A stretch of 64,000 nucleotides of DNA, taken from assembly GCA_945874145.1 (NCBI GenBank), contig CAMCFN010000004.1, positions 5,407-69,406 of the forward strand. Reading direction: 5' to 3'. Source of the DNA: Akkermansia muciniphila. Lineage in GTDB: Bacteria > Verrucomicrobiota > Verrucomicrobiia > Limisphaerales > SXTU01. Below are positions 4,875 through 57,395 of this stretch, one piece after another. Each line of letters opens with the position of its first letter. Positions within the stretch are counted from its first letter, which is position 1. Both the position numbers and the translations under genes were made by a program. A model generated the notes under the pieces. The model had not been told where the DNA came from. It worked only from the letters and a program-made list of their open reading frames with translations, and searched no databases.

Positions 4875-5887
4875 AACCCGACTTCAAAGCCGCGCACGTC
4901 GCCGCCGAGTTCGACCACACGTCGCCGCTCATCACCTGCCGCTTTGACCCCACGGGCAGGTTCGTCTTCGCCACGGCCGAGGATCGCGCCATCCTGCGCT
5001 GGGATCTGGCCGACCCGAAGAAGAAGACCGTGTTCAGCGCGCATGATTCCTATGTCTGGGCGGTTGCGTTGTCGAAGGATGGCCAGATCCTTGTGAGCGC
5101 GGGCGGCGATGACACGCTCATCTGGTGGCCCGCCACGGCGGAGAAGCCTGAACCGCAGCGCAAGGTCGCGGCGCACAAGGGCTGGATTCGCGCCCTCGCC
5201 ATCAGCCCGGACGGCAAGCTCCTCGCCAGCGGTGGCAACGACCGGCTCGTTAAACTCTGGAATCTGGCCGACGGGAAAATGGTGCAGGAGTTCTCCGGCC
5301 ATGAGCTGGACGTTTACAGCGTCACGTTCCATCCCGACGGCAAATTTCTCCTCTCCGGCGACCTCATGGGCAAGGTGCACCAGTGGGATCTCGCCACGGG
5401 CAAGTCCGTGCGCGTGCTCGATGCAAAGGAGCTGCACCATTATGACAAGGGACAGCAAGTTCACTTCGGCGGCATGCGCGGCCTTGCCATTTCGCCGGAC
5501 CGGAAGAACCTCGCGTGCGGCGGGCTGCACAAGGCCACGAACCCCCTTGGCAACGTCCACGAGCCCATCGTCCAGCGCTACGACTGGGAAACCCACAAGT
5601 TGGTGAAGACGCACCTCGCCGAGGGTTTGACTAACTCGACCGTGTGGAACTGCCTCTTCCATCCCGACGGCACGCTCATCGCCGGTTGCGGCGGCGGCAG
5701 CGGCGGGCACCTGCTCTTCTGGGGCAAGGACGACGAGAAGCCCGCGCCCGCCTTCAAGCTCCCCGACATGGCCCGCGAAATGGATTTGCACCCCGACGGC
5801 CTCCAGATCGCCACGGTCCACTACGCCAAGAAACTGCGCCTGACCAAGCTCGCGCCCAAGCCCCCGGCACCCGCGAAGAAGGCGTGA
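4871..5887 (+). CDS. WD40 repeat (beta-propeller) protein, no signal peptide
   Basis: Repeated WD-like blocks (RWDL, LIWW, VKLWNL, VHQWDL). GTG start in a GTGA overlap with the upstream ORF. Paralogous to 40654..41655. Confidence 0.85.
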   Translation: MKPDFKAAHVAAEFDHTSPLITCRFDPTGRFVFATAEDRAILRWDLADPKKKTVFSAHDSYVWAVALSKDGQILVSAGGDDTLIWWPATAEKPEPQRKVAAHKGWIRALAISPDGKLLASGGNDRLVKLWNLADGKMVQEFSGHELDVYSVTFHPDGKFLLSGDLMGKVHQWDLATGKSVRVLDAKELHHYDKGQQVHFGGMRGLAISPDRKNLACGGLHKATNPLGNVHEPIVQRYDWETHKLVKTHLAEGLTNSTVWNCLFHPDGTLIAGCGGGSGGHLLFWGKDDEKPAPAFKLPDMAREMDLHPDGLQIATVHYAKKLRLTKLAPKPPAPAKKA

Positions 5888-27489: not shown

Positions 27490-28650
27490 ATGAAACCACT
27501 GCCTCTCCTCATCGCCACCCTCCTGTTCGCCGCCACACTGTCGGTCCAGGCCGCCTCGCCGCTCACGTCCGCCATCGAAGCCGCGCTCACCAGGGAGATC
27601 GCCGCCCACCACGCCGCCGGCGTCGTCACGCTCGTGATGCAGGACGGCAAGGTGATTCATCACGCTGCCACCGGACTCGCTGACCGCGACCAAAAGCTCC
27701 CGATGAAGGCCGATTCACTTTTCTGGATCGCCTCCATGACCAAGTCCGTGGCCGTCACCACGATCATGACGCTCGTGGACGAGGGCAAGCTCTCGCTCGA
27801 CGTTCCCGCGTCGCAGTGGCTGCCCGAGCTGGGCAAGGTCAAGCTCGCCAGCGGGCAGCCGCCCGCCCGCGCCATCACACTGCGTGACCTGCTGTCGCAC
27901 ACGGCGGGCATCGCGTTTCCGCCGCGCAAGTCCACCGATGGAGCGCACTCCCTCAAGGGCTACGTGGCGGAGTTGCTGCGCGCGCCCCTCGCCTTCGAGC
28001 CGGGTTCGGCCTACGAATACGGCTTTGGGATCACCGTCGCGGGCCGCATCGCGGAGCTGGTTTCCGGCAAGCCCTTTGAAGTGCTGATGCACGAGCGCGT
28101 CCTCGACCCGCTGGGCATGAAGGAGACCACGTTCCATCCCGACGCCCGCCAGCGCCCGCGCATCGCCCGCACTTACAAATCCGCCGAGGGCGGCGGCCTC
28201 GCACTGGCCAACAACGTCTTCGTCACGTCCGACCCCGCCGTGCGGCGCATGGCCGAGCCCTCGGGCGGGCTGTTCTCCACGGCGGCGGACATGGCCAAGT
28301 TCTACCAGATGATTCTCAACGGCGGCGTGCATGAGGGGAAACGCATCGTGTCGGAAAAGGCCGTCGCCGAGATGACGCGCCCGCACAAGGCCGGCGGCAA
28401 GACTCTGAACTACGGTCTCGGCTGGCAGACCGGCAACGGCGAGAGGCCGGCCGTTCCTGGTTTTTCCAAAACCGCCTTCGGCCACGGCGGCGCGTTCGCC
28501 ACGCACGGGTTCATTGATCCCGAGCGCAAACTGGTCACGGTGTTCATGGTGCAGAACGTCTTGGTGACCGGCAGCGGCGATGCGCGCAAGGCCTTCCATG
28601 ATGAAGTCAACCGCGCGCTGAAAAGCGGCGAAACAAGCTCGGCCCAGTGA
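27490..28650 (+). CDS. serine hydrolase, beta-lactamase (class C/PBP4-like) family
   Basis: Signal peptide MKPLPLLIATLLFAATLSVQA. S-x-x-K motif ASMTKSV, YEYGFG, HGGAF (KTG-equivalent region). The track ORF opens at 27430. Confidence 0.85.
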   Translation: MKPLPLLIATLLFAATLSVQAASPLTSAIEAALTREIAAHHAAGVVTLVMQDGKVIHHAATGLADRDQKLPMKADSLFWIASMTKSVAVTTIMTLVDEGKLSLDVPASQWLPELGKVKLASGQPPARAITLRDLLSHTAGIAFPPRKSTDGAHSLKGYVAELLRAPLAFEPGSAYEYGFGITVAGRIAELVSGKPFEVLMHERVLDPLGMKETTFHPDARQRPRIARTYKSAEGGGLALANNVFVTSDPAVRRMAEPSGGLFSTAADMAKFYQMILNGGVHEGKRIVSEKAVAEMTRPHKAGGKTLNYGLGWQTGNGERPAVPGFSKTAFGHGGAFATHGFIDPERKLVTVFMVQNVLVTGSGDARKAFHDEVNRALKSGETSSAQ

Positions 28651-31469
28651 ACTCACTCAAAGCCAGCCCAACCTTCCGCCAAGGTCCAGCGGCCATCTGG
28701 CCGCGCCTGTTCGCTGTGCTCTGCTTGGTTGGAGCAACGGGGCTTCACGCTGCGGAAAACACTTGGTGGTCGTATCAGCCCGTGGTCCGCCCCGCCTTGC
28801 CACCGGTGAAAAGTTCCACCTGGGTCCGCAACGACCTCGACCGCTTCATTCTCGCCAAATTGGAGGCGAAGGGGCTCCAACCCTCACCCGAGGCCGACCC
28901 GCGCACTTTGATTCGCCGCCTCTATTTCGACCTCCTCGGCCTGCCCCCTACGCCTGAGGAAGTTGAAGCGTTCGTGCGCGAGTGTTCCCCAATCGGCAAT
29001 CGGCAATCGGCAATCGCCAATCTCATTGACCGTCTCCTCGCCAGCCCGCACTACGGCGAACGCTGGGCGCGTCACTGGCTCGACATCGCCCACTACGCCG
29101 ACACCCACGGCTTCGAGCGCGACCAGCTTCGCCCCAACGCCTGGCGCTACCGCGACTACGTCATCGCCTCGCTCAACGCCGACAAGCCTTACGACCAATT
29201 CCTTCGCGAGCAAATCGCTGGCGACGTCCTCCCCCCAGCCCCCAAGCGTCAGACCCCAGACGCCATCGCCCTCGGCTTCCTCGCCGCCGGCCCGTGGGAT
29301 TTCGTCGGTCAGGTCGAGACCAAGAGCGACGTGCTCAAGCGCGCCGCCCGCGCGGACGACCTCGACGACATGGTCACGCAAGTCCTCACCGCCTCGATGG
29401 GCGTGACCATCAATTGCGCCCGCTGCCACGACCATAAGCTCGACCCCATTTCGCAGCGCGAATACTACGGCCTCTGGGCGGTCTTCGCCGGCGTGAAGCG
29501 CGGCGACCGCGAGCTGGACCCCGCCGCCACCGCGCGTCGCGAGACCGAGCGCAAGCAGCTCCAGACGCGTCTCCGCGAAGTCTCCGCCGAGTTGGGCCGC
29601 CTCACCGGCGAGGGCCTCGACCTCGCGGACATGGTCGGCGGCGGCAATGGTCGCGGCACGGGCACCAAGGGCGCGGGCCTCGACCTCCGCACCGGCAACG
29701 TGGTGAAGGACAAGCTCGGCTACCACCGCGACATCCAGCTCAACCTCCTGCAAAAGCCCGAGTGGCCGGACGCGAACACGCCGAAGTTCGTCCAGTGGGT
29801 TTTTGTGCCGGACGGCAAGTCGCCCGTGCCCGTCGCGCCGCAAGTCACCGTCAGCCACCTGCCGCCCACGTCTGGCCACGCGTGGGACGCGATTCGTAAT
29901 GGCGCGCTGAACGCCCTAGTCTCCACCAAACTCGACGGCGTGGACTTCGCGGTGGCTGGCCACTCGCTCCTTGGCCTGCATGCCAACGCCGGCATCACCT
30001 TCAACCTCGCTGAGATTCGCAAGGCCAGCGGCTTCGCGAAACTCCGCTTCACCGCACAGGTCGGCTTCGGCGCAGGACCGACTGCCGCTGCGACTCGCGC
30101 GGACTTCTCCGTTTTCGCCGGCAAGGAGCTGCTCTTCCAGAAGCTCAAACTCCGCAAAGACGAGTCCGCCCGCGTGGACGTGGCACTCCCGGACGCCGCC
30201 GAGACGCTCACGCTCGTCGCGACCGACGGCGGGGACGGCATCGGCAACGACCTGCTCTTCCTCGGCGACGCGAAGCTCTCGCTGACCGTGGAGGCGCAGA
30301 GCCTCGCCGCCGCTGACCGCGCGCGTCTGGAGACGTTGCGCGCGGAGGAGAAGCAGTTGAACACCGCCCTGGCCGCGAAGGCCGACGGCGACAAAGTCTA
30401 TGCCATCACCAGCACCGAGCCGCCCGTGGTAAAAGTCCTCCGCCGTGGCAACCCCGAGGACGCGCAGGAGGAAGTCGCGCCCGGTGTCCTCAGTTGCGTG
30501 AAGCACGCCGCCGCCGATTTCGCGCGCGCCAAGACCGAGGGCGAGCGCCGCCTCGCATTGGCCGAGTGGATTACGCATCCCGCAAACCCGCTCACCCGCC
30601 GCGTGCTCGTGAACCGCCTGTGGCACCACCACTTCGGCGTCGGTCTCGTGGACACGCCCAGCGACTTCGGCAAAGGCGGCGGCGCACCGTCGCACCCGGA
30701 GTTACTCGATTGGCTGGCGGAGGAATTCCTCGCGCGCGGCTGGTCGCTGAAGGCGATGCACCGGGTGATTTGCACGTCAGCGGCGTATCGGCAGAGTTCA
30801 GCGTTCAGTAATCAGTATTCAGTAAGCAGTGGGGGAAGCGCCAGTGTGCCGCGGAGCACCGGTCCCCCACTGAACACTGAACACTGGAAACTGAACACTG
30901 CCGCCGCCCAACACCTCGACGCCTCGAACCGCCTCCTCTGGCGTCAAAACCCCCGCCGCCTCGACGCCGAGTCCACGCGTGACGCCGTGCTTGCCGTCAG
31001 CGGCAAGCTGAACCTCACCGCCGGCGGCCCCGGCTACCGCGACTTCAAATACACCGAGGCCTACGCGCCCATCTACGACTACGTCACCGCCGACACGCCG
31101 GAGCTGTGGCGGCGCAGCATCTACCGCTTCGTCGTGCGCACCACGCCGCACACGTTCATGACCACGCTCGACTGTCCGAACCCCGCGAACCTCACGCCCG
31201 CCCGCACCGCCACCACCACCGCGCTGCAAGCCCTCGCGCTCTCGAACAACGAGTTCATCCTCCAGCAAGCCCGCCATTTCGCCGCCCGCGTGGAGCGCGA
31301 GGCGGGCGCGGACGCCGCCGCCCAAATAAACCGTGCCTTCCACCTCGCGTTCCCCCGTCCGCCCGGCTTGGCGGAACTGGCCGCCGCGCGTGACCTTGTC
31401 CGCACCGACGGCGTCTTTTCCCTGTGCCGCATGCTGCTCAACGCCAACGAATTTGTGTATGTGGATTGA
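28647..31469 (+). CDS. DUF1549/DUF1553 (PSD1-type) protein with NPCBM-like central module
   Basis: GTG start in a GTGA overlap with the upstream gene. [65 protein letters not shown]. The central segment ...[22 protein letters not shown] resembles NPCBM-type carbohydrate-binding modules. Confidence 0.85.
28991..29022 (+). repeat. in-frame heptanucleotide tandem array (AATCGGC)x3 + AATCGCC + AATC inside the CDS
   Basis: Read directly: aatcggc aatcggc aatcggc aatcgcc aatc. Encodes [10 protein letters not shown] just before the [11 protein letters not shown] block. Confidence 0.7.
30797..30900 (+). repeat. in-frame palindromic element: five TTCAGTN heptamers, 36-nt core, five NACTGAA heptamers
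   Basis: Left array at 30797-30831 and right array at 30868-30900. Perfect 10-bp stem CAGTGGGGGA/TCCCCCACTG plus 19/27 further pairs. AT-rich relative to the gene. Amounts to 87 extra nt compared with the paralog at 56804-56825. Confidence 0.75.
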
Positions 31470-35474: not shown

Positions 35475-36998
35475 ATGAAAAAACTCCTGCTCACTCTGTT
35501 GGTCGCTGGCTCCTTTGCCACCGCATTCGCTGCCGCGCCTGCCCAGCCCAACATCGTCATCATGCTCGTGGATGACATGGGCGTGATGGACACCTCGGTG
35601 CCGTTTCTTACGGACGAGGCGGGCAAGCCGAAGCGGTATCCGCTCAACGATTACTACCGCACGCCAAGTATGGAGCGGCTCGCAGCCCGTGGCATTCGCT
35701 TCAACAACTTCTACGCCATGAGCGTGTGCTCGCCCACGCGCATCTCCATCATGACCGGCCAGAACGCGGCGCGGCATCGCACGACGAACTGGATCAACCC
35801 CGACAACAACAACGCCGGCCCAAGCGGCCCGTCGCAGTGGAACTGGCGTGGCCTGAAGCAGGGCGACGTGACGTTGCCCCGCCTCCTGCAGGCGAACGGC
35901 TACCGCACCATCCACGTCGGCAAGGGTCACTTTGGCCCGCGCGACTCCGACGGCGCAGACCCGCGCAACTTGGGCTTCGACATCAATGCCGGCGGAGCGT
36001 CTATCGGCGCGCCAGCAAGCTACTACGGCACGCAGGATTTCGGTCTCAAGACGAAGAATGCAAAAGCCGGCGTGCGCGGCCTGGAGAAGTATCACGGTCA
36101 GGAAATCTTCCTCACCGAGGCGCTCACACTCGAAGCCAACACGCACGTCGCCGACGCGGTGAAGGCCGACAAACCATTCTTCCTCTACTTCGCGCAATAC
36201 GCCGTCCACGCACCGTTCAACTCCGACTCACGCTTCGCCGCGCACTACGCAAACTCCGGGAAACCCGCGAACGCGCAGGCCTTCGCCACGCTCATCGAGG
36301 GCATGGACAAGTCGCTTGGCGATGTGCTGAACCAGCTCGAAAAGTTAGGCGTCGCGGAGAACACGCTGTTTGTCTTCCTCGGTGACAACGGCTCCGACGC
36401 GCCGCTTGGGCACCAGCACGAGGTTGCCTGTGCCGCGCCGTTGCGCGGGAAGAAAGGCTCGCACTACGAAGGCGGCGTGCGCGTGCCGTTCATCGCCGCG
36501 TGGGCCAAGCCGGATGCGAACAACGCCTTCCAGAAACGCCTGCCCATCGCCGCCGGATCCATCCAGAGCCAGCAGGCCGCCGTCTATGACATGTTCCCCA
36601 CCCTCCTCGCGCTCACCGGCAAGCCCGCTCCGGCGAACCACGTCGTTGACGGTGCGCGCCTCGACACGCTGCTCACCGGCAAGCGCGATGCGAGCCGCGA
36701 AGAATCGTTCCTCATGCACTACCCCCACTCGCCGCACCGCACCGACTACTTCACCACCTACCGCAACGGCGATTGGAAAGTCATCTACCACTACTTCCCG
36801 GGCGAGGTGTCCGAGAGCTCCCACTACCAGCTCTTCAACCTAAAGGCCGACCCGTTCGAGCAGAAGAACCTCGCCACGACTGAACCGACCCAGCTCAAGC
36901 GATTGATGCAGGGCCTCGCCGCTGGCTTGGAGAAACAAGCCGCCGTGTATCCGGTGGACAAGGGGACGAAGCTCGCGCTGAAGCCGAAGTTGCCATGA
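35475..36998 (+). CDS. Cys-type sulfatase
   Basis: Signal peptide MKKLLLTLLVAGSFATAFA. NIVIMLVDDMG. Signature VCSPTRISIMTGQN. An alternative ATG lies at 35460. Confidence 0.9.
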   Translation: MKKLLLTLLVAGSFATAFAAAPAQPNIVIMLVDDMGVMDTSVPFLTDEAGKPKRYPLNDYYRTPSMERLAARGIRFNNFYAMSVCSPTRISIMTGQNAARHRTTNWINPDNNNAGPSGPSQWNWRGLKQGDVTLPRLLQANGYRTIHVGKGHFGPRDSDGADPRNLGFDINAGGASIGAPASYYGTQDFGLKTKNAKAGVRGLEKYHGQEIFLTEALTLEANTHVADAVKADKPFFLYFAQYAVHAPFNSDSRFAAHYANSGKPANAQAFATLIEGMDKSLGDVLNQLEKLGVAENTLFVFLGDNGSDAPLGHQHEVACAAPLRGKKGSHYEGGVRVPFIAAWAKPDANNAFQKRLPIAAGSIQSQQAAVYDMFPTLLALTGKPAPANHVVDGARLDTLLTGKRDASREESFLMHYPHSPHRTDYFTTYRNGDWKVIYHYFPGEVSESSHYQLFNLKADPFEQKNLATTEPTQLKRLMQGLAAGLEKQAAVYPVDKGTKLALKPKLP

Positions 36999-38485
36999 AC
37001 TCACCCTCCGCCTGCAATCTCCGCCAGCACTCCGCCTCCCGCCGGGACTTCCTCTGGCAACTCGGCGGCGGCCTCGGCGGCGTGGCGTTGACCGCGTTGC
37101 TTGCGGAGCAGGCTGCATGCGCCGCCGCCCAGACGCCAGACCCCATCCCCCATCCCCAAAACCCGCTCGCTCCCAAGCCCGCGCCACACCCCGCCCGCGC
37201 TCGCGCCGTCATCCAAATCTTCTGCCCCGGCGGCCTGAGCCATGTGGACTCGTGGGATTGGAAGCCGGAGCTGGCGAAGCGCACGGGCAAGCCGTTTGAC
37301 CCCACGGGCACGGTGCAATTCTTCGCGTCCAAGCCCGGCAACTGCCAAGGCAGCTATTGGCCGTTCCGCCAGCACGGGCAGTGCGGACGCTGGATGAGCG
37401 ACTTGTTCCCGCAGTTTGCCGCGTGCGTGGACGACGTCGCGTTCATCCACTCCATGCAGAGCAAGTCCGCGCTGCACGGTCCGGCGATGTTCATGGCCAA
37501 CAGCGGCTTCATCCTGCCCGGCTTTCCGAGCATGGGCGCGTGGGTCACCTACGGCCTCGGCAGCGAGAGCGAGAACCTCCCCGCGTTCGTCGTGCTGCCC
37601 GACCCGCGCGGCCTGCCGCCCGGCGGCGTCATCAACTGGGGTGCGGGCTTCCTCCCCGCCGTGCATCAAGGCACGCCGCTCAACACCGACCCCGAGCTCC
37701 CGCCCATCGCGGACCTGTTTCCGCCGAAGAACTTCGCCGGCATCACGCCGCAGGGCGAAGTGGCCGGGCGCAACTTTCTCCAAACCCTGAACCGTCAGCA
37801 CGCCGCAGCGCGCGCGGGCAACACGGAACTCGACGCCCGCATCGCCGCCTACGAGCTGGCCGCGCGGATGCAACTCAGCGCACCCGAAGTCACCGACCTG
37901 CGCGGCGAGAGCGACGCGACGAAGCAGCTCTACACCCTCGCCGATGAGGACATCGGGCCGTTCGGTCGCCAATGCCTGCTGGCGCGGCGGCTGGTCGAGC
38001 GCGGCGTGCGCTTCGTGCAGATTTTCTGCGGCGCGGAAAACACGGGCGCGAAGAAAATCCGTCCGAACTGGGACAGCCACGAAGACCTCGTCCGCGACCA
38101 CGGCTACTGGGGCCGCGTGCTGGACACCGGCGCGGCGGCGTTGCTTACGGACCTCAAGGCGCGCGGCCTGCTCGACTCGACGCTCGTCATTTGCACGTCG
38201 GAGTTCGGTCGCCAGCCCGGCGCGCAGGGCAAGGGCCGCGACCACAACGCCGGCGCGTTCACCGCGTGGCTTGCGGGCGGCGGCATCAAGGGCGGCACGG
38301 CTTACGGCACGACGGATGAACTCGGTTCCAAGGCCGAGGAGCACCCCGCATACAGCTACGACCTCCACGCCACCGCGTTGCACCAGCTCGGCGTGGACCA
38401 CGAGCGCCTGAGCTTTTACCACAACGGCGTCCAACGCCGCCTCACCGACGTGCATGGGCATGTCGTTCGGGAGATTTTGGCGTGA
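36995..38485 (+). CDS. DUF1501 family protein with twin-arginine leader
   Basis: ATGA overlap with the sulfatase stop. SRRDFLWQLGGGLGGVALTALLA. SEFGRQPGAQGKGRDHN. Confidence 0.85.
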   Translation: MNSPSACNLRQHSASRRDFLWQLGGGLGGVALTALLAEQAACAAAQTPDPIPHPQNPLAPKPAPHPARARAVIQIFCPGGLSHVDSWDWKPELAKRTGKPFDPTGTVQFFASKPGNCQGSYWPFRQHGQCGRWMSDLFPQFAACVDDVAFIHSMQSKSALHGPAMFMANSGFILPGFPSMGAWVTYGLGSESENLPAFVVLPDPRGLPPGGVINWGAGFLPAVHQGTPLNTDPELPPIADLFPPKNFAGITPQGEVAGRNFLQTLNRQHAAARAGNTELDARIAAYELAARMQLSAPEVTDLRGESDATKQLYTLADEDIGPFGRQCLLARRLVERGVRFVQIFCGAENTGAKKIRPNWDSHEDLVRDHGYWGRVLDTGAAALLTDLKARGLLDSTLVICTSEFGRQPGAQGKGRDHNAGAFTAWLAGGGIKGGTAYGTTDELGSKAEEHPAYSYDLHATALHQLGVDHERLSFYHNGVQRRLTDVHGHVVREILA

Positions 38486-40653: not shown

Positions 40654-41655
40654 CTAGGCCGTCGCTTCCCACACCGTCAGCTTATTGTGTCCCGCCGTGT
40701 AGAAGCACGTGCCCGTCTCATCGAGCGTGAACTTGTGGAAGTGGTTTGAGGCCATCTCCTCGCGCAGGATTTTGCCGGACACCACGTCGAAGAACATCAC
40801 CAGCCCCTTGGAGTCGCCGCCCGCGCCCACGAGCCACTCGCCCTGCGGATGAAACGCCAGGTGCGTGATGAGGCCCTTGGCCTTGTCGCCCGAGAACTTC
40901 GCCACGCGCTCCTGCTTCCGCCAGTTAAAGACCTCGACGTGCGCCTTGCCTTCGAGATGGTCAATGTTCCCAACCTTGCCCATGCCGCCGACCGCGAGCT
41001 GCGTGCCATCCGGCGAGAAGGCCAGCGAGCGGATGCCGCCGATGGAGTGGATGCGCGCGCGCGGATCCCAGGTGTAAACTTCCGGCACTTCGAGCGTCCC
41101 CAAAGGCTTGCCGGATGCCACGTCCCACACGACCACATGACCGATCTTGTCGCCGGTGGCCAGCAGCGTGCTATCAGCGGAGAAGGCGCAGGCGTAGAGC
41201 ATGGAGCTGAAGTGGCTCGGCGTCAGCGTCGCGTGGCCGCGCAGTTCGTGCTTTGGCTTGCCGGTCGCAGCATCCCAGACGCGGCAGACCATGTCATCGG
41301 CCGTGCTGGCGACGAGCTTGCCGTCACGCGTCGCGACCACGTTGCGAATCCAGCGGTCGTGAGCCTTGAAGCCGCGCACCTTCTGGCGCGACTCCGCATC
41401 CCACCAGATGAGTTGGCCGTCGTAGGCACCGGAGACGACCTGCTTGCCCGCGACCGCGATGCCGGTGACGTAGCCGGTGTGGCCTTCCATCGCGATGCCC
41501 TCGGGCTTCTCCTCGGCGAGGTCGAAGTGATGCACGCAGCCGTCCGAGCTGCCCGCAAAGAGGCGCTTCGTCTCCGGCACGCGTGCGATGCAGAGCAGGA
41601 TGTCCTTCCGCGAAATCTCCTTCGCGACTTTGAACTTGGCGGGGTCGGTGGGCAT
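40654..41655 (-). CDS. WD40 repeat (beta-propeller) protein, no signal peptide
   Basis: ATG 41655 (MPTDPAKFKVAKEI...). WD-like blocks LIWWD, RVWDA, VVWDV. Paralog of 4871..5887. The track ORF opens at 41697 inside a heptamer array. Confidence 0.85.
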   Translation of the reverse strand: MPTDPAKFKVAKEISRKDILLCIARVPETKRLFAGSSDGCVHHFDLAEEKPEGIAMEGHTGYVTGIAVAGKQVVSGAYDGQLIWWDAESRQKVRGFKAHDRWIRNVVATRDGKLVASTADDMVCRVWDAATGKPKHELRGHATLTPSHFSSMLYACAFSADSTLLATGDKIGHVVVWDVASGKPLGTLEVPEVYTWDPRARIHSIGGIRSLAFSPDGTQLAVGGMGKVGNIDHLEGKAHVEVFNWRKQERVAKFSGDKAKGLITHLAFHPQGEWLVGAGGDSKGLVMFFDVVSGKILREEMASNHFHKFTLDETGTCFYTAGHNKLTVWEATA

Positions 41656-41662
41656 GGCGTGG

Positions 41663-41697
41663 GAGTTGAGAGATGAAGGTTGAGAGTTGAGAGGCAC
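41663..41697. repeat. heptanucleotide array (GAGTTGA-like x4-5; TCAACTC on the coding strand) in the 45-nt DUF1501-WD40 spacer
   Basis: Read directly: gagttga gagatga aggttga gagttga gaggcac. Confidence 0.6.
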
Positions 41698-46901: not shown

Positions 46902-47618
46902 ATGACCCTTTCCGCCATCGCTCGGCCCGCCTCGCTGGTCGAGGACGTCTGCCAGCGGCTCGCCACGGAAATCCGCGCGGAGCGCAACGGCGGCGACGGC
47001 TGGCTGCCTCCTGAGCGCCAGCTCGCCGAGCAACTGGGCGTGAGCCGCACCGTCATCCGCGAAGCGACCAAGCGGCTGGAGTTGCAGGGGCTGATCGAGG
47101 TCCAGCACGGCATCGGCATCAAGGTGGTGGACAAGCTGCACAAGCCGCTCAACGGCTCGCTGGCCCTGCTGATTCCCGACACAGCGGACCGCCTGCGCCA
47201 GCTCGTCGAGGTGCGCCTGCTGGTGGAGCCGGAAGTGGCCCGCCTCGCCGCCGAGCGCGTGAAGCCAGTCGCCCTGCGAGCCTTGAAGCAAGTTCAAGCC
47301 CGGCTTGCCGCCGCCACGGACATGGAGGAGGCCATCGAGCTGGACCTTGAGTTTCATCGCCAACTCGCCCGCGCTTCCGGCAATGAAGTGCTGGTGTTGC
47401 TGCTGGAGTCGCTCGGCGACCTGGGCCGCAAGAGCCGCTCAGTGACGGTCTCCACCACGGGCATCGCGCGCGCCCACGAGCAGCATGAGGCCGTGTTGGC
47501 CGCCGTCGCGGCTGGCGATGCGGACCGTGCGCATGCAGCCATGCAGTTTCACATCCGCGAAGCGGCTGCGGACCTCGCCCGTCTGCTCAAGCAGCCCGCC
47601 GCCAAAGCCACCCGTTGA
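46902..47618 (+). CDS. GntR family transcriptional regulator (FadR/FCD subfamily)
   Basis: wHTH LPPERQLAEQLGVSRTVIREATKRLELQGLIEVQHGIGIKV plus a helical FCD-like C-domain. Confidence 0.9.
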   Translation: MTLSAIARPASLVEDVCQRLATEIRAERNGGDGWLPPERQLAEQLGVSRTVIREATKRLELQGLIEVQHGIGIKVVDKLHKPLNGSLALLIPDTADRLRQLVEVRLLVEPEVARLAAERVKPVALRALKQVQARLAAATDMEEAIELDLEFHRQLARASGNEVLVLLLESLGDLGRKSRSVTVSTTGIARAHEQHEAVLAAVAAGDADRAHAAMQFHIREAAADLARLLKQPAAKATR

Positions 47619-47622
47619 ACGC

Positions 47623-49122
47623 ATGAAGAACGATTCCCCCTTCCACCGCATCGCTCCCAGCCGCCCCCAGTCACGCCGCGAGTTCCTCTGGCAAAGCGGC
47701 GGCGGCCTCGGCGGCATTGCGCTGGCCGGCCTGCTCAGTCGCGCCGGTGCGCTCGCCGCGAATCCCCAGACCCCAGACGCCAGACCCCATTTCCCCGCCA
47801 AGGCCAAGCGTGTCGTCCAGCTCTTCATGGCCGGCGCGGCAAGTCATGTTGACCTCTTCGACTTCAAGCCCGAGCTGGTGAAGCGCGATGGGCAGGCCAG
47901 CGAGTTCGGCGAGTCGGTCGAGGCGTTTCAAAATGGGCTGGGGCCGTGGAAGAAGCCGGTGTGGGACTTCAAGCCCTACGGCCAGAGCGGCAAGATGTTG
48001 AGCGACGCAGTAGCCGATCTTGGGCACGTGGCGGACGAGCTGGCCTTTATCCACAACCTCGTCGGCAAGACCGGGGTCCACTCGCAGGCCACGTTCTTGC
48101 AGGCGACAGGCTTCAACCTGCCCGGCTTTCCCGGCATGGGCAGTTGGGTCAGCTATGGCCTCGGCACGGAGAACGAGAACCTCCCGACCTTCGTCGTGCT
48201 CCCCGACCATCGCGGCCTCGCCAGCAACGGCACGAAGAACTGGGATGCCGCCTTCCTCCCGCAGCAGCACAGCGGCACAGTGATTTATCCCGGAATGGAG
48301 ACACCGATTGCCGACCTGTTTCCTCACAAGAAGGGCGACTTCGTCACGCGCGACAGCGAGGCGGCCGGGCACGCGGTCATGGCGCGATTGAATCAGGTTC
48401 ATGCCGCGTCGCGCGCGGGCGACGACCGGCTGGAATCCCGCATCCGCAGCTACGAACTTGCCGCGCGGATGCAACTCGCCGCGCCCGAGGCGCTCGACAT
48501 CTCGAAGGAGCCCGACCACCTGCTGCGCGCCTATGGCATCAACAACACGCGCAAGGAATGGCCCAAGGAAATCAACGCCGAAGAAGAGGCCGACATTTTC
48601 GGGCGCAAGTGCCTTGTCGCCCGCCGGCTCTTGGAGCGCGGCGTGCGCTTCGTGCAAATCTGGAGCGGCAACGATAACGGCTTCCCGCGCCGCAACTGGG
48701 ATTCGCACGAGGACATTGAGCGTGATCACGGCCCGCTCGCGCGCGGCATGGCGCGCGGTGCCTCCGCCCTCATCCAAGACCTCAAGCAGCGCGGCCTGCT
48801 CGACGACACCATCATTCTCTGGACCACTGAGTTTGGCCGGATGCCCAGCACGCAGGGCGGCAAGGGCCGGGACCACAACCCGTTTGTGTTCACGAACTGG
48901 CTCTGCGGCGGTGGCATCAAGGGCGGGGTCACGCACGGGGAGAGCGACCAATGGGGTTACAAGCCGTTGAACCGCAACGCGCCCACAACCTGCTACGACA
49001 TCCACGCCACCATGCTGCATCTGCTGGGCATCCACCACGAACAGCTCACTTTCCGACACAACGGCATCGACCGCCGCCTCACCGACGTTCACGGCGAAAT
49101 CATCAAAGACTTATTGGCATGA
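47623..49122 (+). CDS. DUF1501 family protein with twin-arginine leader
   Basis: ATG 47623, 4 nt after the GntR stop. SRREFLWQSGGGLGGIALAGLLS. TEFGRMPSTQGGKGRDHN. The track ORF opens at 47485 inside GntR. Confidence 0.85.
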   Translation: MKNDSPFHRIAPSRPQSRREFLWQSGGGLGGIALAGLLSRAGALAANPQTPDARPHFPAKAKRVVQLFMAGAASHVDLFDFKPELVKRDGQASEFGESVEAFQNGLGPWKKPVWDFKPYGQSGKMLSDAVADLGHVADELAFIHNLVGKTGVHSQATFLQATGFNLPGFPGMGSWVSYGLGTENENLPTFVVLPDHRGLASNGTKNWDAAFLPQQHSGTVIYPGMETPIADLFPHKKGDFVTRDSEAAGHAVMARLNQVHAASRAGDDRLESRIRSYELAARMQLAAPEALDISKEPDHLLRAYGINNTRKEWPKEINAEEEADIFGRKCLVARRLLERGVRFVQIWSGNDNGFPRRNWDSHEDIERDHGPLARGMARGASALIQDLKQRGLLDDTIILWTTEFGRMPSTQGGKGRDHNPFVFTNWLCGGGIKGGVTHGESDQWGYKPLNRNAPTTCYDIHATMLHLLGIHHEQLTFRHNGIDRRLTDVHGEIIKDLLA

Positions 49123-50457: not shown

Positions 50458-53214
50458 ATGCAACGCACCCTAGCAACGGCATTCGCGATCTGCGGCCTGG
50501 TTCTGGCCAGCGACGCAGCCGAGCACCGTGGCAAGGCACCGTCGGGCGACTGGTGGTCGCTGAAGCCGTTGGTGAAACCGGCCGTTCCTCAAATCGGCAA
50601 CCGGCAGGCGGCAAGCGCCAATCCCATTGACGCCTTCATCCTGGCCAGGCTCCGCGAGCAGAAGCTCACGCCCTCGCCCGCCGCCGACCGGGGCACGTTG
50701 ATTCGCCGGCTGACCTTCGATTTGCACGGTCTGCCGCCCACGCCGGAGGAGGTGGACCGGTTTGAGCAGGACGCCGCCGCGCAAGCGTATGAGCGACTGG
50801 TGGAGCGGCTGCTCGCCTCGCCACGCTACGGCGAGCGTTGGGCGCGGCACTGGCTGGACGTGGTTCACTACGGCGAGTCGAACGGCTTCGGCATGGACCG
50901 GCCAAGGCTGCAGGCGTGGCCATATCGGGACTACGTCATCGCCGCCTTGAACACCGACAAGCCCTACGCCCGTTTTGTGCAGGAGCAGCTCGCGGCGGAT
51001 GCGTTGTTCCCCGAGGACGCGGCGCTCGTGCCCGCGCTCGGCTTTGCGGCGGCGGGACCGTTCAACCAGAGCGCGCTCGTCGAGCAGGTGGACGGCACGG
51101 ACTGCAAGCGCATGGCGCTGAACCTCGACCGCGATGACATGGTCGCGAGCACGGCCAGCACGTTTCTCAGCCTCACGGTGCATTGCGCACGTTGTCATGA
51201 GCACAAGTTCGACCCGATTTCCCAGCAGGATTACTACCGGCTCCAAGCGGTCTTCGCGGGCGTGGGCCGCGCCGAACGGGCCTTCGATGCCGATCCCCAA
51301 GTTCGCACCCGGCGCGCCGGACTGCGCGGGCTCATCGCGGACTTGGAGAAAAATCCCGACGCCCACCCAGCGACCGCCGCCGAGCGCGACTCGCTCGCCA
51401 CCGCGCAGGCGGCGTGGGAAAAGTCCCTCGCCTCGCAGACGGTGAACTGGACTCTGCTGCCCGTGGAGCAAGTCACCTCCACGAACAGCACAACTACGTT
51501 CACCAAGCTGGATGACGGCTCGTGGCTGGCCGCCGGCACTGCGGCGGACAAGGATGTTTACACCGTGCGAGCGAGGGTCACCCTGCCCACAGTCACCGCC
51601 CTTCGGCTCGAAGTGCTCCCGGATGACCGCCTCCCGACTCGTGGTCCCGGTCGCCAGGACAATGGCAATCTGCACCTCTCGGAAATCCGCGTGAGTTTGG
51701 CGGGGACGAATGTGGCCGAGAAGCCGAAGTCGATTGCCCTGCGCAACGCCTCGGCGGATTTCAACCAGACGGGCTGGGGCATCGAGCGCGCCTTGGATGG
51801 CAAACCTGAGACGGCGTGGGGCATTCATCCGCAGGTTGGCAAGCTGCATCACGCGGTCTTTGAGTTGACCCAGCCGTCCGCTGCAACCAACGGGGTGACG
51901 CTGGTCATTCAACTGGATCAACTTCACGGCCAGCGGCATCTCATCGGGCGCTTCCGCCTGTCGGCCACCGACAAGCCCCTGCCTGTGCGGGCGCCCACGC
52001 TGCCGGTGGAGCTGCTCGCCAAGCTGGCCCGCCCGGACACCGAGCGCACCGAGGCGGAGCGCAAGCAGCTCTTCGACCTGCATCGCCTGGTGTTCTTGCG
52101 GGAACAGCTCGCGCAGCTTCCCGCCGAGCAGCGGGTCTGGGCCATCGCTGCGGACTTCGCCCCCCTGCGTAACTACAAGCCCACGAAGGAGCCGCTGCCC
52201 ATCGCGGTGCTGCACCGCGGCGACATCAAGCAGCCGCTGGCCACGGTCGGCCCCGGCGCGCTCGCAGCGGTGGGCACGCTGCCGGCGGAGTTTGCGCTCG
52301 CGAATGCGCAGGACGAATCCGCTCGCCGGGCCGCGCTGGCCCGCTGGATCACGGCCCCGGAGAACATGCTGACCTGGCGCAGCATCGTGAATCGCGTCTG
52401 GCACTGGCACTTCGGTCGCGGCCTGGTGGACACCCCGAACGACTTCGGCCGCATGGGTTCGCCGCCCACTCATCCGGAGCTGCTGGACTGGCTGGCCATC
52501 GAGTTTCGCGACAACGGCGGCACACTGAAGCAGTTGCACAAGCTCATCGTGACCAGCGCCACCTATCGGCAGATCTCCGCCACCGCCGAGGCAGGAAGGC
52601 GGAACCCTGGGATGCTCCCTGTCCGCCTTCAAACCTCGCCGGCTGCGACCGATTCGGACAACCGCTTCCTCTGGCGCATGAACCGTCCGCGCCTCGATGC
52701 GGAGGCCGTCCGCGACGCGCTGCTGGCCGCCAGCGGCAAGCTGAACCTCACGATGGGCGGTCCCTCGGCCATGCAGTTCAAGTTCGATGATCCGAACGTG
52801 AACGTCAGCCCGCGCGTGGACTACGCCGCCTTCGATCCCGACAGTCCGGCCAGCTACCGGCGCAGCGTGTATCGCTTCCTGTTTCGCAATTTGAACGATC
52901 CGCTGCTGGAAGCGCTGGACGCTGTGGACCCCTCGCTTTCCACGCCCAAGCGGAACTCGACCATCACGCCGCTTCAAGCGCTGTCGCTCTGGAACAACCG
53001 GTTCGTCCTGCGTCAGTGCGAGCACCTGGCCACGCGCGTCGAGCAGGAGGCGACCGGCCTCGAAGCCCAGATCACCCGCGCCTTCAGCCTGCTCTGCGCC
53101 CGCGCGCCATCGCGAGAGGAGATGGCACTGCTCACCGAGCACGCCCGCCGTCATGGTTTGGCCCACGCGTGCCGCGTGGTGGTGAACCTGAACGACTTCC
53201 TGTTTGTGAACTGA
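50458..53214 (+). CDS. DUF1549/DUF1553 (PSD1-type) protein
   Basis: [66 protein letters not shown] central beta-rich module reads ERALDGKPETAWGIHP. Confidence 0.85.
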   Translation: MQRTLATAFAICGLVLASDAAEHRGKAPSGDWWSLKPLVKPAVPQIGNRQAASANPIDAFILARLREQKLTPSPAADRGTLIRRLTFDLHGLPPTPEEVDRFEQDAAAQAYERLVERLLASPRYGERWARHWLDVVHYGESNGFGMDRPRLQAWPYRDYVIAALNTDKPYARFVQEQLAADALFPEDAALVPALGFAAAGPFNQSALVEQVDGTDCKRMALNLDRDDMVASTASTFLSLTVHCARCHEHKFDPISQQDYYRLQAVFAGVGRAERAFDADPQVRTRRAGLRGLIADLEKNPDAHPATAAERDSLATAQAAWEKSLASQTVNWTLLPVEQVTSTNSTTTFTKLDDGSWLAAGTAADKDVYTVRARVTLPTVTALRLEVLPDDRLPTRGPGRQDNGNLHLSEIRVSLAGTNVAEKPKSIALRNASADFNQTGWGIERALDGKPETAWGIHPQVGKLHHAVFELTQPSAATNGVTLVIQLDQLHGQRHLIGRFRLSATDKPLPVRAPTLPVELLAKLARPDTERTEAERKQLFDLHRLVFLREQLAQLPAEQRVWAIAADFAPLRNYKPTKEPLPIAVLHRGDIKQPLATVGPGALAAVGTLPAEFALANAQDESARRAALARWITAPENMLTWRSIVNRVWHWHFGRGLVDTPNDFGRMGSPPTHPELLDWLAIEFRDNGGTLKQLHKLIVTSATYRQISATAEAGRRNPGMLPVRLQTSPAATDSDNRFLWRMNRPRLDAEAVRDALLAASGKLNLTMGGPSAMQFKFDDPNVNVSPRVDYAAFDPDSPASYRRSVYRFLFRNLNDPLLEALDAVDPSLSTPKRNSTITPLQALSLWNNRFVLRQCEHLATRVEQEATGLEAQITRAFSLLCARAPSREEMALLTEHARRHGLAHACRVVVNLNDFLFVN
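50592..50626 (+). repeat. degenerate heptanucleotide array (AATCGGC AACCGGC AGGCGGC AAGCGCC AATCCCA) in frame
   Basis: Read directly. The paralog 54672 has only two units at the homologous site. The 21-nt difference equals exactly three units, and it sits after an identical 22-nt flank. Confidence 0.55.
52595..52630 (+). repeat. perfect 9-bp inverted repeat GAAGGCGGA...TCCGCCTTC (18-nt loop) inside the CDS
   Basis: Read directly. It lies in the same post-YRQ(S/I)S linker where the paralog 28647 carries the heptamer palindrome. Confidence 0.6.
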
Positions 53215-54671: not shown

Positions 54672-57395
54672 ATGCATCGCTTCAATCTCTCCTGCCCGCC
54701 GCTGCTGCGGACCCTCTCAATCGCTGCACTGGCTTCCACGCTGGTGGGCTCGGCCCCCAGCGCGGCTGCCGAGGACAAGCCCAAGTCATCGCCCACCCCG
54801 GCAGCGAAGGCCGGCGCCTCGCGTGACTGGTGGTCGTTGAAGCCGCTGGTGAAACCGGCCGTTCCTCAAACCGGCAATCCGATCGATGCCTTCATCCGTG
54901 CGAAGCTCGCGGAGAAGCAGCTTCAGCCCGCACCCGAGGCCGAGCCGCGCGTGTTGATCCGGCGACTCTACTTCGACCTCCTCGGCCTGCCACCGAAGCC
55001 CGAAGAGGTTGCGGAGTTCGAACGGGCCTGCTCAATCGGCGACCGGCAATCGGCAACCAGCAGTCTCGTGGACAAGTTGCTCGCCTCGCCGCACTACGGC
55101 GAGCGTTGGGCGCGGCACTGGCTCGACGTGGTTCACTACGGGGACACGCACGGCTACGACAAGGACAAGCCGCGCCCGAACGCCTGGCCTTACCGCGACT
55201 ACGTCATCCGTGCCTTCAACGAGGACCGGCCCTACGCACGGTTCATCCAGGAGCAGGTTGCCGGGGATGTGCTTTTTCCCAGCACGCGGGATGGCATCGA
55301 GGCGCTGGGCTTCATCGCGGCGGGGCCGTGGGACTTCATCGGCCACGCGGAGGTGCCGGAGACCAAGATTGACGGGAAGATCGCGCGCCACCTCGACCGT
55401 GACGACATGGTCGCCAACACCTTGCAGACCTTCAACAGCCTGACCGTCGGCTGCGCGCAGTGCCACGACCACAAGTTTGACCCCATCCCGCAGCGCGATT
55501 ACTACCGGCTGCACGCCGTCTTCGCCGCGCTGGACCGGGCGGACAAAAAGTATTTTACCGACGCGAAGCTCACGGCGCGCTTTGCCGAGCTGGAGCACCG
55601 TCAACGCACGCTGACCGCGCAGCGCACGGCCTTGGAGAACAAGCCGAAGCTCACTGCCGGCAAGGAACTCGAATCGCTCGACCAGCAAATCGAAGCCGCG
55701 AGCAAAGCCAAGGGCGGGCTCCGTCCCGAGTATGGCTACCACAGCGCCGTCTCACCAACGCAGGTCACGACGAAGTGGGTGCAAGTGGATTTGGGCCGCA
55801 GTGTGGCGATTGACCGCGTGGTGTTGCGGCCATGCTACGATGACTTCAACAAGATCGGCGCGGGCTTTGGTTTTCCGGTGCGTTTCAAGGTGGAAGCCAG
55901 CGAGGATGCGCAGTTTAAGTCGGGCGTGGTGGCCATCGCGGACAAGACCGCAGCGGACTTTGCCAATCCCGGCATCGCACCGCAGATCTTCAAGAGCACC
56001 GGTGCGACGGCGCGCTTCCTCCGCGTCACGGTCACCAAGCTCGCACTCCGGCAGAACGACTACATCCTCGCCCTGGCGGAGGTGCAGGTCTTCGACAGCA
56101 CCGGAAACAACGTCGCGCTCAAGGGCGGCGTCACCGCGCTCGACTCGATCGAGGCCGCGCCGCGCTGGCGAAAGGCCAACCTGACGGACGACGTCGCCCC
56201 CGCCGCCGACAACTCCGGCGCACTGGCCGAACTGCGCGCCAAGCGGGAGGCCCTGCTCGCGAAGTTCACGGACGACACGGCCCGTGCCCAACTCGCCGCA
56301 CTGGCGAAGGACATGGAACACGTGGCGGCGGAATTGAAGCAGTTTCCTAAGCCGGATGTGGTGTATGCCGGCACGGTGCATTATGGCGGTGGGGCCTTTT
56401 CCGGCACGGGACCAGCCGGGGGCAAGCCGCGCGTCATCAAGGTGCTGCATCGCGGGGATGTGAAGCAGCCCAAGGACGAGGTCATTCCCGGCGCACCGGG
56501 CTATCTCACAGGCCTGCCCGGCGAGTTCACGCTGCCTGCCGAGCACGCCGAGGGCGAACGCCGCGCCGCGCTGGCCAGGTGGCTTTCCTCAACCGACAAC
56601 TCGCTGACTTGGCGCAGCATCGTGAATCGCGTCTGGCAGTATCACTTCGGTCGCGGCCTGGTGGAGACGCCGAACGACTTCGGCCGCATGGGCGCGCTGC
56701 CGACGCACCCGGAGCTACTTGACTGGCTGGCCGTCGAGTTTCGCGACAACGGCGGCACACTGAAGCAGTTGCACAAGCTCATCGTGTCGAGCACGACGTA
56801 TCGGCAGAGTTCAAGTGTTCAGCGTGCCGCCGCCACTGACTCCGCTAACTCGCTTCTCTGGCGTCAAAACCGCCGTAAGCTCGACGCCGAGGCGGTGCGC
56901 GATGCGACGCTCTTCGTCGCCGGCAAACTGGATCCGAAGCTGGGCGGACCGGCGTTTCAGGACTTCATCGTCGAGAAGCCGGAACACTCGCCGCACTACC
57001 AGTATCATCTGCACGATCCGGAAGATCCGCGTTCGCACCGGCGTTCCGTGTATCGCTTCCTCGTGCGCTCGCAGACGCAGCCGTTCATGACCACGCTCGA
57101 CTGCGCAGACCCTTCGATGCAGGTGGGCAAGCGCAACGAAAGCGTCTCCGCGCTGCAAGCCCTCGCGTTGTTGAACAACGGACTCATGGTCACGATGTCG
57201 AAACACTTTGCTGCGAAGCTCGACGCGGGCGGCGGCGATTTAAATGCCAAAGTGGAACGCGCCTTCCGCGAAGCGCTGTCCCGAGCGCCCTCACCAGAGG
57301 AAAAGGGCGGCCTCACTGCTTACGCCCAGCAGCACGGACTGGCAAATGCCTGCCGCGTGCTTTTCAACCTGAACGAGTTCGCCTTCGTGGATTGA
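54672..57395 (+). CDS. DUF1549/DUF1553 (PSD1-type) protein with central F5/8 type C (discoidin) domain
   Basis: [59 protein letters not shown]. The central KWVQVDLGRSVAIDRVVLRP...ARFLRVTVTKL...LALAEVQVFD is discoidin-like. Confidence 0.85.
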   Translation: MHRFNLSCPPLLRTLSIAALASTLVGSAPSAAAEDKPKSSPTPAAKAGASRDWWSLKPLVKPAVPQTGNPIDAFIRAKLAEKQLQPAPEAEPRVLIRRLYFDLLGLPPKPEEVAEFERACSIGDRQSATSSLVDKLLASPHYGERWARHWLDVVHYGDTHGYDKDKPRPNAWPYRDYVIRAFNEDRPYARFIQEQVAGDVLFPSTRDGIEALGFIAAGPWDFIGHAEVPETKIDGKIARHLDRDDMVANTLQTFNSLTVGCAQCHDHKFDPIPQRDYYRLHAVFAALDRADKKYFTDAKLTARFAELEHRQRTLTAQRTALENKPKLTAGKELESLDQQIEAASKAKGGLRPEYGYHSAVSPTQVTTKWVQVDLGRSVAIDRVVLRPCYDDFNKIGAGFGFPVRFKVEASEDAQFKSGVVAIADKTAADFANPGIAPQIFKSTGATARFLRVTVTKLALRQNDYILALAEVQVFDSTGNNVALKGGVTALDSIEAAPRWRKANLTDDVAPAADNSGALAELRAKREALLAKFTDDTARAQLAALAKDMEHVAAELKQFPKPDVVYAGTVHYGGGAFSGTGPAGGKPRVIKVLHRGDVKQPKDEVIPGAPGYLTGLPGEFTLPAEHAEGERRAALARWLSSTDNSLTWRSIVNRVWQYHFGRGLVETPNDFGRMGALPTHPELLDWLAVEFRDNGGTLKQLHKLIVSSTTYRQSSSVQRAAATDSANSLLWRQNRRKLDAEAVRDATLFVAGKLDPKLGGPAFQDFIVEKPEHSPHYQYHLHDPEDPRSHRRSVYRFLVRSQTQPFMTTLDCADPSMQVGKRNESVSALQALALLNNGLMVTMSKHFAAKLDAGGGDLNAKVERAFREALSRAPSPEEKGGLTAYAQQHGLANACRVLFNLNEFAFVD
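55034..55061 (+). repeat. degenerate heptanucleotide array (AATCGGC GACCGGC AATCGGC AACCAGC) in frame
   Basis: Read directly. Encodes IGDRQSATS at the site homologous to 28991-29022. Confidence 0.5.

Follow-up and report, generated by a model that had tools for sequence, protein, structure and literature searches.

Heptanucleotide repeat arrays translated within loops of PSCyt2/PSD1 proteins in a Limisphaerales bacterium

We have characterized heptanucleotide repeat arrays of the AATCGGC type that lie in frame within three paralogous genes of a Limisphaerales bacterium (Verrucomicrobiota). The stretch analysed, termed the window, spans 64,000 nt (positions 5,407 to 69,406 of contig CAMCFN010000004.1) and has a G+C content of 64.7%. 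The nearest named relatives, judged by closest proteins, are Limisphaerales/Pedosphaera-type Verrucomicrobiota such as Pedosphaera sp. Tous-C6FEB, for which reason a planctomycete origin, initially suggested by the PSD1/PSCyt domains, was dismissed. The protein of open reading frame (ORF) 28647-31469 was matched letter for letter on freshwater metagenome scaffolds in ENA. The host proteins combine PSCyt2 (DUF1549) and PSD1 (DUF1553) domains and belong to a large family of exported paralogs. ORFs 28647-31469, 50458-53214 and 54672-57395 are referred to as paralogs 1, 2 and 3, respectively (Table 1). Three loops of these proteins are hypervariable in the ortholog alignment, namely site B (around amino acid 46), site A (around amino acid 115) and site C (around amino acid 720).

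Table 1. Host genes, repeat arrays, hairpin inserts and exchange tracts, in window coordinates
Position	Strand	Feature	Location	Details
28647..31469	+	Host gene 1		PSCyt2 + NPCBM + PSD1 protein, 940 aa
28990..29022	+	(CAATCGG)4.7 array	Site A of ORF 28647-31469, in PSCyt2/DUF1549	10-aa peptide, aa 115-124
30799..30900	+	In-frame hairpin insert	Site C of ORF 28647-31469	About 31 extra aa in PSD1 domain
37136..37157	+	CCAGACC/CCCCATC heptamer array	Linker after Tat-type signal, DUF1501 ORF 36995-38485	QTPDPIPHP
41663..41693	.	(GAGTTGA)4.4 array	Intergenic	Fills spacer between DUF1501 gene end (41701) and inferred WD40-gene ATG
47763..47789	+	(CCCCAGA)3.7 array	Equivalent linker of DUF1501 ORF 47485-49122	NPQTPDARPH
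50458..53214	+	Host gene 2		PSCyt2 + PSD1 protein, 918 aa
50548..50593	+	Probable gene-conversion tract with 54825-54870	Ends exactly at site B array	44/46 nt, last 24 exact
50592..50626	+	Degenerate five-unit array	Site B of ORF 50458-53214	Encodes IGNRQAASAN
52499..52551	+	Probable gene-conversion tract with 56734-56786	Ends about 30 nt before site C insert	53-nt exact
52585..52643	+	Smaller in-frame hairpin insert	Site C of ORF 50458-53214	z -4.1
54672..57395	+	Host gene 3		PSCyt2 + F5/8 type C + PSD1 protein, 907 aa
54869..54881	+	Site B short form, AACCGGC AATCCG	ORF 54672-57395	Exactly 21 nt below long form
55033..55062	+	Degenerate AATCGGC-type array	Site A of ORF 54672-57395	Encodes IGDRQSATS

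The best-preserved array, at 28991-29022, reads as three aatcggc units followed by aatcgcc and aatc. Tandem Repeats Finder assigned period 7, 4.7 copies and 96% matches to 28990-29022, and reported weaker period-7 rows (76-80% matching) at 50595-50621 and 55033-55062. All three arrays are in frame, at amino acids 46-55 (site B), 115-124 and 122-130 (site A), and are so placed that a change in unit number would set the reading frame of each ORF. The site B array of paralog 2 adjoins the conserved Asn-Pro codons AATCCC of an NPID motif. A two-unit AATCGGC probe, AATCGGCAATCGGC, found seven matches in the window at up to two mismatches (0.85 expected; none of 100 shuffles reached seven), all of them at the three array sites. 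The original prediction had placed in-frame arrays in these three paralogs; its coordinates are borne out by the letters and by Tandem Repeats Finder, and the shuffles show the arrays to be non-random. It had also described the arrays as differing by exact three-unit steps, which proved correct in one of two cases. Around the array at 50592, paralogs 2 and 3 have the identical 22-nt flank and the exact 21-nt difference that had been described. At the 28991/55034 site, paralogs 1 and 3 differ in loop length (69 vs 66 nt) by a single codon that lies outside the array. Further period-7 arrays, beyond those described earlier, were found in the window at 30805-30900, 37136-57, 41663-93 and 47763-89.

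Period 7 stands out among the repeat periods. In the window, arrays of at least three units with period 7 number five against 0.55 expected, and there are none with periods of 8-12. In 456 kb of related loci there are 26 against 1 expected, together with six arrays of period 8 and none of periods 9-11, and in 845 kb of loci selected for AATCGGC there are 355 against 1 expected. Among arrays of other units in the AATCGGC-selected loci, 211 have period 7, 30 have period 8 and six have periods 9-11. This spectrum describes the window and these two sets of loci. In the window and the related loci, period-7 arrays are over-represented about 10- to 25-fold, so that the lack of heptamer periodicity beyond chance, which together with a lack of length polymorphism had been named beforehand as grounds for giving up the idea, is the opposite of what was found.

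A census of exact (AATCGGC)3 in a species-representative genome set returned at least 120 loci, against about 0.3 expected by our arithmetic. The counts that follow refer to the 129 arrays analysed among the matches listed. The phyla are mostly Acidobacteriota, Verrucomicrobiota and Planctomycetota, with some Chloroflexota, Proteobacteria, Bacteroidota and Cyanobacteria. The arrays range from 3 to 23 units, 4-5 being the commonest number; 57 fall between genes, 15 at the ends of genes and 57 within them. Coding status was assigned with an ORF caller filtered on third-codon-position G+C, a heuristic that has probably laid spurious ORFs over some intergenic arrays and so counted them as intragenic; it was used in place of a test of stop-free spans, which was dropped as unreliable in GC-rich DNA. 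The coding/non-coding comparison of (AATCGGC)n that had been proposed for the genome was run here on the species-representative set, with about half of the arrays falling inside genes. The intragenic arrays are short, mostly of 4-5 units, and 45 are in the NRQSAIG-encoding orientation against 12 in the other. Their hosts include PheT, AlaRS, DnaG, MetH, RibD, a class I aminoacyl-tRNA synthetase and an aminotransferase, with only two DUF1549 proteins. The earlier view of the arrays as a peculiarity of PSD1 paralogs was too narrow, as they also occur in unrelated housekeeping genes, in intergenic DNA and in several phyla.

An inverted two-unit partner was present within 150 nt of 42 of the 129 arrays, compared with about one of 129 for scrambled units. 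Some metagenome-assembled genomes (MAGs) carry AATCGGC at 3-6 unrelated loci, and many units coexist in the AATCGGC-selected loci. Control heptamers of the same composition as AATCGGC were scanned in viral contigs only, a weaker proxy for bacterial genomes, and were found at 1, 3 and 9 loci compared with 11 for AATCGGC, all far above chance. At least on viral-contig evidence, the process therefore concerns period 7 in general and not one particular unit. In one Phycisphaera MAG (L115), a single AlaRS gene has three separate heptamer-derived inserts, namely an inverted pair (LPISNCQLPI…), an STIDNRQSG stretch and a VQSSKFKVQ array. Two of the contigs (L010 and L065) are labelled as a Klebsiella pneumoniae MAG. 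L065 has a Verrucomicrobia-type DUF1549 gene with a site A array, which most likely reflects contamination of the bin.

The alignments covered 24 paralog 1 orthologs with 77-100% identity, 120 paralog 3 homologs and the DNA of about 90 loci. At site A the family baseline is 54 nt; wherever an ortholog has the AATCGGC-type loop, that loop measures 69 nt (66 nt in paralog 3). Orthologs with this loop differ from each other by substitutions alone, and the 10-amino-acid loop is retained by all of about a dozen orthologs that are 80-88% identical. Other lineages have at site A a 120-nt (GTGCGGA)n…(TCCGCAT)n hairpin or a 123-nt hairpin with octamer arms. The right arms of site A hairpins (ATTCCGC units) terminate where the AATCGGC array terminates.

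Site B varies in length among orthologs. In paralog-3-type proteins the loop has 19 amino acids in 63 of 100 and 12 in 7 of 100, with minor states of 20 and 13; a 26-amino-acid state was found in none of the 100. All long forms whose DNA was examined have period 7, while the unit is lineage-specific: (AATCGGC)3, (AATCCGC)4, AATYGCC, AAGTTCA or GAAGTCA. In every long form the conserved Asn-Pro codons AATCCN form the end of the array, and the short forms have exactly 21 nt less. On a neighbour-joining tree of 44 orthologs, parsimony gave at least four independent changes between long and short, with the long state ancestral. The three-unit steps at site B are thus real, recurrent and slow. The description of the tracts as slippage-type is supported, on an evolutionary timescale, by these recurrent 21-nt differences. 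Fixed unit differences between lineages imply concerted evolution or repeated rebirth of the array. Relatives in the cluster of ORF 50458 at 90% identity or more encode a less decayed peptide at site B, IGSRQSAIGN, and the window copy is the more decayed one.

Paralogs appear to exchange sequence. Overall DNA identity between paralogs 2 and 3 is 58%, yet they share two near-identical or identical tracts that are probably the product of gene conversion (Table 1). A homolog of ORF 54672-57395 (P0155) joins a paralog-1-type N-terminus, with a VKNSAWPR loop and IGNRQSAVAN, to a paralog-3-type body; this chimera directly documents an exchange between paralogs. Both ortholog groups contain the same three types of site A insert. 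Taken with the tracts and the chimera, these shared insert types make gene conversion, and not independent origin, the most likely explanation of array sharing, and since the paralogs exchange sequence, the three arrays in the window are not independent events. It is conceivable that the repeats might act as conversion boundaries or initiators.

Within the species, the arrays do not vary in the material compared. The gene of paralog 1 is identical over 2,823 nt in three independent samples of the same organism. In the cluster of ORF 50458 (at least 90% identity), the 15 members listed of 19 all have 918 amino acids and a 10-amino-acid site B loop and differ by substitutions only. Motif bracketing across about 90 orthologous DNA loci revealed no out-of-frame allele at sites A, B or C. 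The original prediction had looked to strains for polymorphism in unit number, and neither the three samples nor the 15 listed cluster members contain any.

The structural setting of the arrays was assessed with an AlphaFold model of paralog 1 built from 75 sequences (mean predicted local distance difference test score, pLDDT, of 78; predicted template-modelling score, pTM, of 0.71). The 10-amino-acid peptide of site A is placed in the loop between helices 103-112 and 119-132 and in the first turn of the latter, with pLDDT of about 88-96. The site C insert (amino acids 720-751) has pLDDT below 50 and is predicted to be disordered. In the model, site A is a loop inside a domain and not an inter-domain linker. 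The predicted locations at sites A and C fit a loop filler that is tolerated by the protein, and to that extent the suggestion that the tracts are tolerated linkers agrees with what was found. The lone AATCGGC array showed no fold as RNA (z-score = +1.0), and a scan of the window at Rfam gathering thresholds found no family.

Site C holds hairpins. Its baseline is 39-45 nt, and at least eight different hairpin inserts occur among orthologs; in most of them the arms are tandem-periodic, with a period of 7, 8 or 9. The insert at 30799-30900 has two 38-nt inverted arms of TCAGTAA and CACTGAA heptamers that are 79% complementary and enclose a 26-nt loop, and its RNA fold has a free energy of -57.5 kcal/mol (z = -5.3). 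The hairpin inserts at sites A and C fold at z of -2.8 to -11.8, apart from the site A insert of L127 at z of -1.3. Within a lineage the length is constant, at 132 nt in the window and in L124, L125 and L128. Covariation lends no support to a selected RNA structure at site C, with one compensatory pair against about 10 that are broken and with a covariation term of +1.9, although three distinct sequences give the analysis little power. Close relatives of ORF 50458-53214 have an AADVRR…LPTSAAT variant of the insert at 52585-52643. The window has no match to a dispersed AADVRR…LLTSAAT hairpin stem, nor a second copy of the core of the site C element.

We consider it probable that the arrays are heptanucleotide simple-sequence repeats (SSRs), of the kind described as short tandemly repeated repetitive (STRR) sequences or long SSRs (LSSRs), which are made by slippage and filtered by reading frame and loop tolerance. 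Slippage or misalignment that strongly prefers a 7-nt register would generate and homogenize arrays genome-wide. Most copies would be intergenic or lost, and those that survive inside genes would be stop-free, frame-keeping and situated in loops that tolerate them. Keeping the frame requires a net change that is a multiple of 3 nt, and hence steps of three units, 21 nt and seven amino acids. The permissive loops A, B and C of the DUF1549/DUF1553 paralogs would be occupied repeatedly, by single arrays or by hairpin-forming inverted pairs, and gene conversion among paralogs would spread the arrays. Once fixed, an array would behave as ordinary loop-coding sequence, with decay by point substitution and, rarely, loss of three units or re-homogenization of the array. 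Slippage would thus be the generator, selection the filter on frame and length, and conversion between paralogs the means of spread.

Several observations weigh against this account. Array-bearing and array-free loops are about equally long: site A loops of 69 nt also occur in distant homologs that have no array, and site B loops measure 57 vs 54 nt. The same is seen in PheT, where the array loop has 33 amino acids compared with 32-33 in array-free homologs, although simple slippage predicts insertions. This single-copy PheT loop (CAATCGG x4 + CAATCTT) has the same length as that of its closest ortholog, which shows a degenerate period-7 pattern there, while a more distant ortholog has the last unit only, overlying conserved Q/E-S-A codons. 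Equal length with and without an array points either to strong selection on loop length or to rewriting in place by misalignment or templated substitution. Re-expansion of the 1.9-unit short form by single units would need out-of-frame intermediates, and none was seen among the loci. One third of the arrays among the matches listed have an inverted partner, which slippage alone does not create, and the recurrence of the same unit at several unrelated sites of some genomes hints at dispersal. Rare length variants may also exist below the level of the sequences compared.

It is possible, though in our view unlikely, that the arrays are remnants of small mobile hairpin elements that inserted in frame, similar to MITEs (miniature transposable elements with inverted repeats), repetitive extragenic palindromes (REPs) or Rickettsia palindromic elements (RPEs), with the lone AATCGGC array as one surviving arm. 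The excess of inverted partners speaks for such an origin, as do the full inserts with periodic arms at sites A and C in many lineages, the three site A insert types common to two paralog groups and the presence of AATCGGC at several unrelated loci in some genomes. The coincidence between the ends of the site A right arms and the end of the AATCGGC array points the same way, and there is a precedent in Rickettsia, where RPEs are palindromic DNA found in frame in unrelated genes at fold-compatible sites (PMC10969869). The in-frame hairpin inserts at sites A and C resemble RPEs in this respect. However, RPEs are about 150 bp long and conserved in sequence and peptide, whereas the inserts described here are 40-100 nt, lineage-specific and tandem-periodic in their arms. 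Within 200 nt of the three window arrays no inverted partner is present, and the core of the site C element is single in the 64 kb. No target-site duplication was apparent by eye at insert borders, where no systematic test was made, and no transposase was evident, although no search was aimed at transposases. Arm units vary so widely between lineages (unrelated units with periods of 7, 8 or 9 nt) that there is no single recognition sequence. Both the site B and the PheT arrays are anchored to conserved host codons that match the unit and replace a loop of equal length, and arbitrary control heptamers form arrays as well.

A somewhat fainter possibility is that period-7 arrays and their inverted copies are written in place into permissive loops, as equal-length replacements, by template misalignment or template switching during replication or repair. 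Such a process may be unusually active in Verrucomicrobiota, Planctomycetota and Acidobacteriota, where the arrays would be its footprint, and it may nucleate conversion tracts between paralogs. If true, it would be a distinct mutational mechanism that rewrites and homogenizes loops of DUF1549/DUF1553 proteins and even of housekeeping enzymes.

We regard it as very improbable that the arrays are phase-variable contingency loci, in which slipped-strand changes of single heptamers switch secreted proteins on and off, as was suggested as one alternative in the original prediction. The model for such a locus is NeuO of Escherichia coli K1, an O-acetyltransferase whose 5' (AAGACTC)n heptanucleotide repeat yields full-length protein only if the unit number is divisible by 3 (PMC13001214). 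The window arrays resemble it in being heptanucleotide repeats in the 5' coding region, with the NeuO repeat translated as a heptapeptide repeat, and in that the frame is kept only by multiples of three units. Exact 21-nt differences separate paralogs and orthologs, and membership in a large exported family means that any single copy may be dispensable. NeuO, however, has 3-53 units, is out of frame in 65.6% of genomes and is mixed in length within a culture (PMC13001214), whereas the window tracts have 2-5 units and show no such variation. The tracts reach at most 4.7 units, they are mostly imperfect and two of the three are degenerate. The invariance among samples, cluster members and the dozen site A orthologs, together with the absence of frameshifted alleles from the orthologous loci, speaks against a switch. 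Half of the site A array encodes the start of a helix that is confidently modelled, and the same arrays occur in essential genes, among them PheT, AlaRS and DnaG, whose loss of expression would kill the cell. Loop filler is the reading of the arrays that is supported on an evolutionary timescale, and a switch is not. It is just as improbable that the heptapeptide IGNRQSA is a selected protein motif with DNA periodicity as a by-product, a reading that can draw on the conserved length of the 10-amino-acid site A loop and on the 45:12 sense bias of intragenic arrays, but which is at odds with site B orthologs that encode the unrelated VQGSKFKVQN, GEKSEVRSQN and IRNPQSAIRN and share only the 7-nt periodicity of their DNA, with the identical codons per unit that a seven-residue repeat would not need, with the frequency of the same array in intergenic DNA and with the wholly different inserts that relatives have in its place.

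The slippage account draws on systems that are already known. STRR sequences of cyanobacteria are tandem 7-bp units of several sequences per genome and many copies, with a function that is not established; in filamentous cyanobacteria they often form hairpins and are often intergenic or near start codons (PMC2670836; bioRxiv 10.1101/2022.06.06.494920). The intergenic array at 41663-93 and the heptamer-armed hairpin at 30799-30900 are similar to them. In contrast to STRR sequences, the arrays described here come from Verrucomicrobiota (a pattern scan adds Planctomycetota, Acidobacteriota and Chloroflexota), have GC-richer units and are to a large extent translated inside conserved proteins. TAACTGA repeats of marine Beggiatoaceae, some Cyanobacteria and Bacteroidetes occur in sets of 2-6 copies, mostly intergenic and upstream of start codons (MacGregor 2015, PMC4679880). 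A minority are found within ORFs, oriented so as to be stop-free and to encode the heptapeptide LSVISYQ, and each genome strongly favours one heptamer, with few ORF-internal cases, mostly at protein ends (PMC4679880). The TCAGTAA/CACTGAA arms in the window share the ACTGA core of this repeat. In our loci, by contrast, numerous units are found together, inverted pairs are common and the arrays occupy internal loops of conserved domains. According to the summary in PMC4679880, Mrazek et al. (2007) reported a prokaryotic excess of heptanucleotides, attributed it to polymerase slippage with a 7-nt footprint and found coding-region repeats mainly at unit lengths that are multiples of three. The period spectrum observed here, with 7 far above 8 and periods 9-11 near zero, agrees with that summary of long SSRs; in contrast to the survey as summarised there, non-triplet units persist here in frame via three-unit steps and partial units.

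Other heptamer arrays in the window lie in genes adjacent to the family or between genes (Table 1). The inferred ATG of the WD40-repeat gene, at 41655 on the minus strand, is directly beyond the intergenic array at 41663-41693, a position that resembles that of STRR and TAACTGA repeats just upstream of start codons. Among the loci compared, the CCCCAGA array variant was matched only in L209, and there were five viral matches; in L209 a near-identical CCCCAGA-type array with the same imperfect unit lies inside the loop of a hairpin insert. The window as a whole is a dense cluster of DUF1549/DUF1553 and PSCyt1/PSD2-5 proteins, each beside a DUF1501 gene, with interspersed sulfatase genes (annotated in L001), a DUF4838 protein and a GDSL lipase. 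Such a layout is typical of the Planctomycetes-Verrucomicrobia-Chlamydiae (PVC) group.

The arrays belong to the known class of heptanucleotide SSR and STRR-like repeats, translated here as loop filler. The heptamer excess and the idea of polymerase slippage (Mrazek et al. 2007, as given in PMC4679880), as well as hairpin-forming 7-bp STRR sequences (PMC2670836), have already been published, and a literature search found no description of such heptamer arrays for Verrucomicrobiota, Planctomycetota or Acidobacteriota. What is added here are hotspot loops, inverted heptamer-armed hairpins, turnover of units at constant length, occupancy of housekeeping proteins and conversion tracts adjacent to arrays. 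The orthologous series does not reveal a new regulatory switch. It does indicate that heptanucleotide repeats are also abundant in Verrucomicrobiota, Planctomycetota and Acidobacteriota, and since three 7-nt units are exactly seven codons, such repeats can enter the coding sequence of conserved proteins. Peptides such as ADCRLPI and the heptamer-encoded loop peptides in MAG proteomes are accordingly translated SSRs and not motifs. Array loops are noise for alignment and homology search, and they flag sites of a protein that are structurally permissive. With its constant loop length under different units, its recurrent 21-nt losses and its adjacent conversion tracts, the orthologous series is a data set for asking why 7 nt is favoured.

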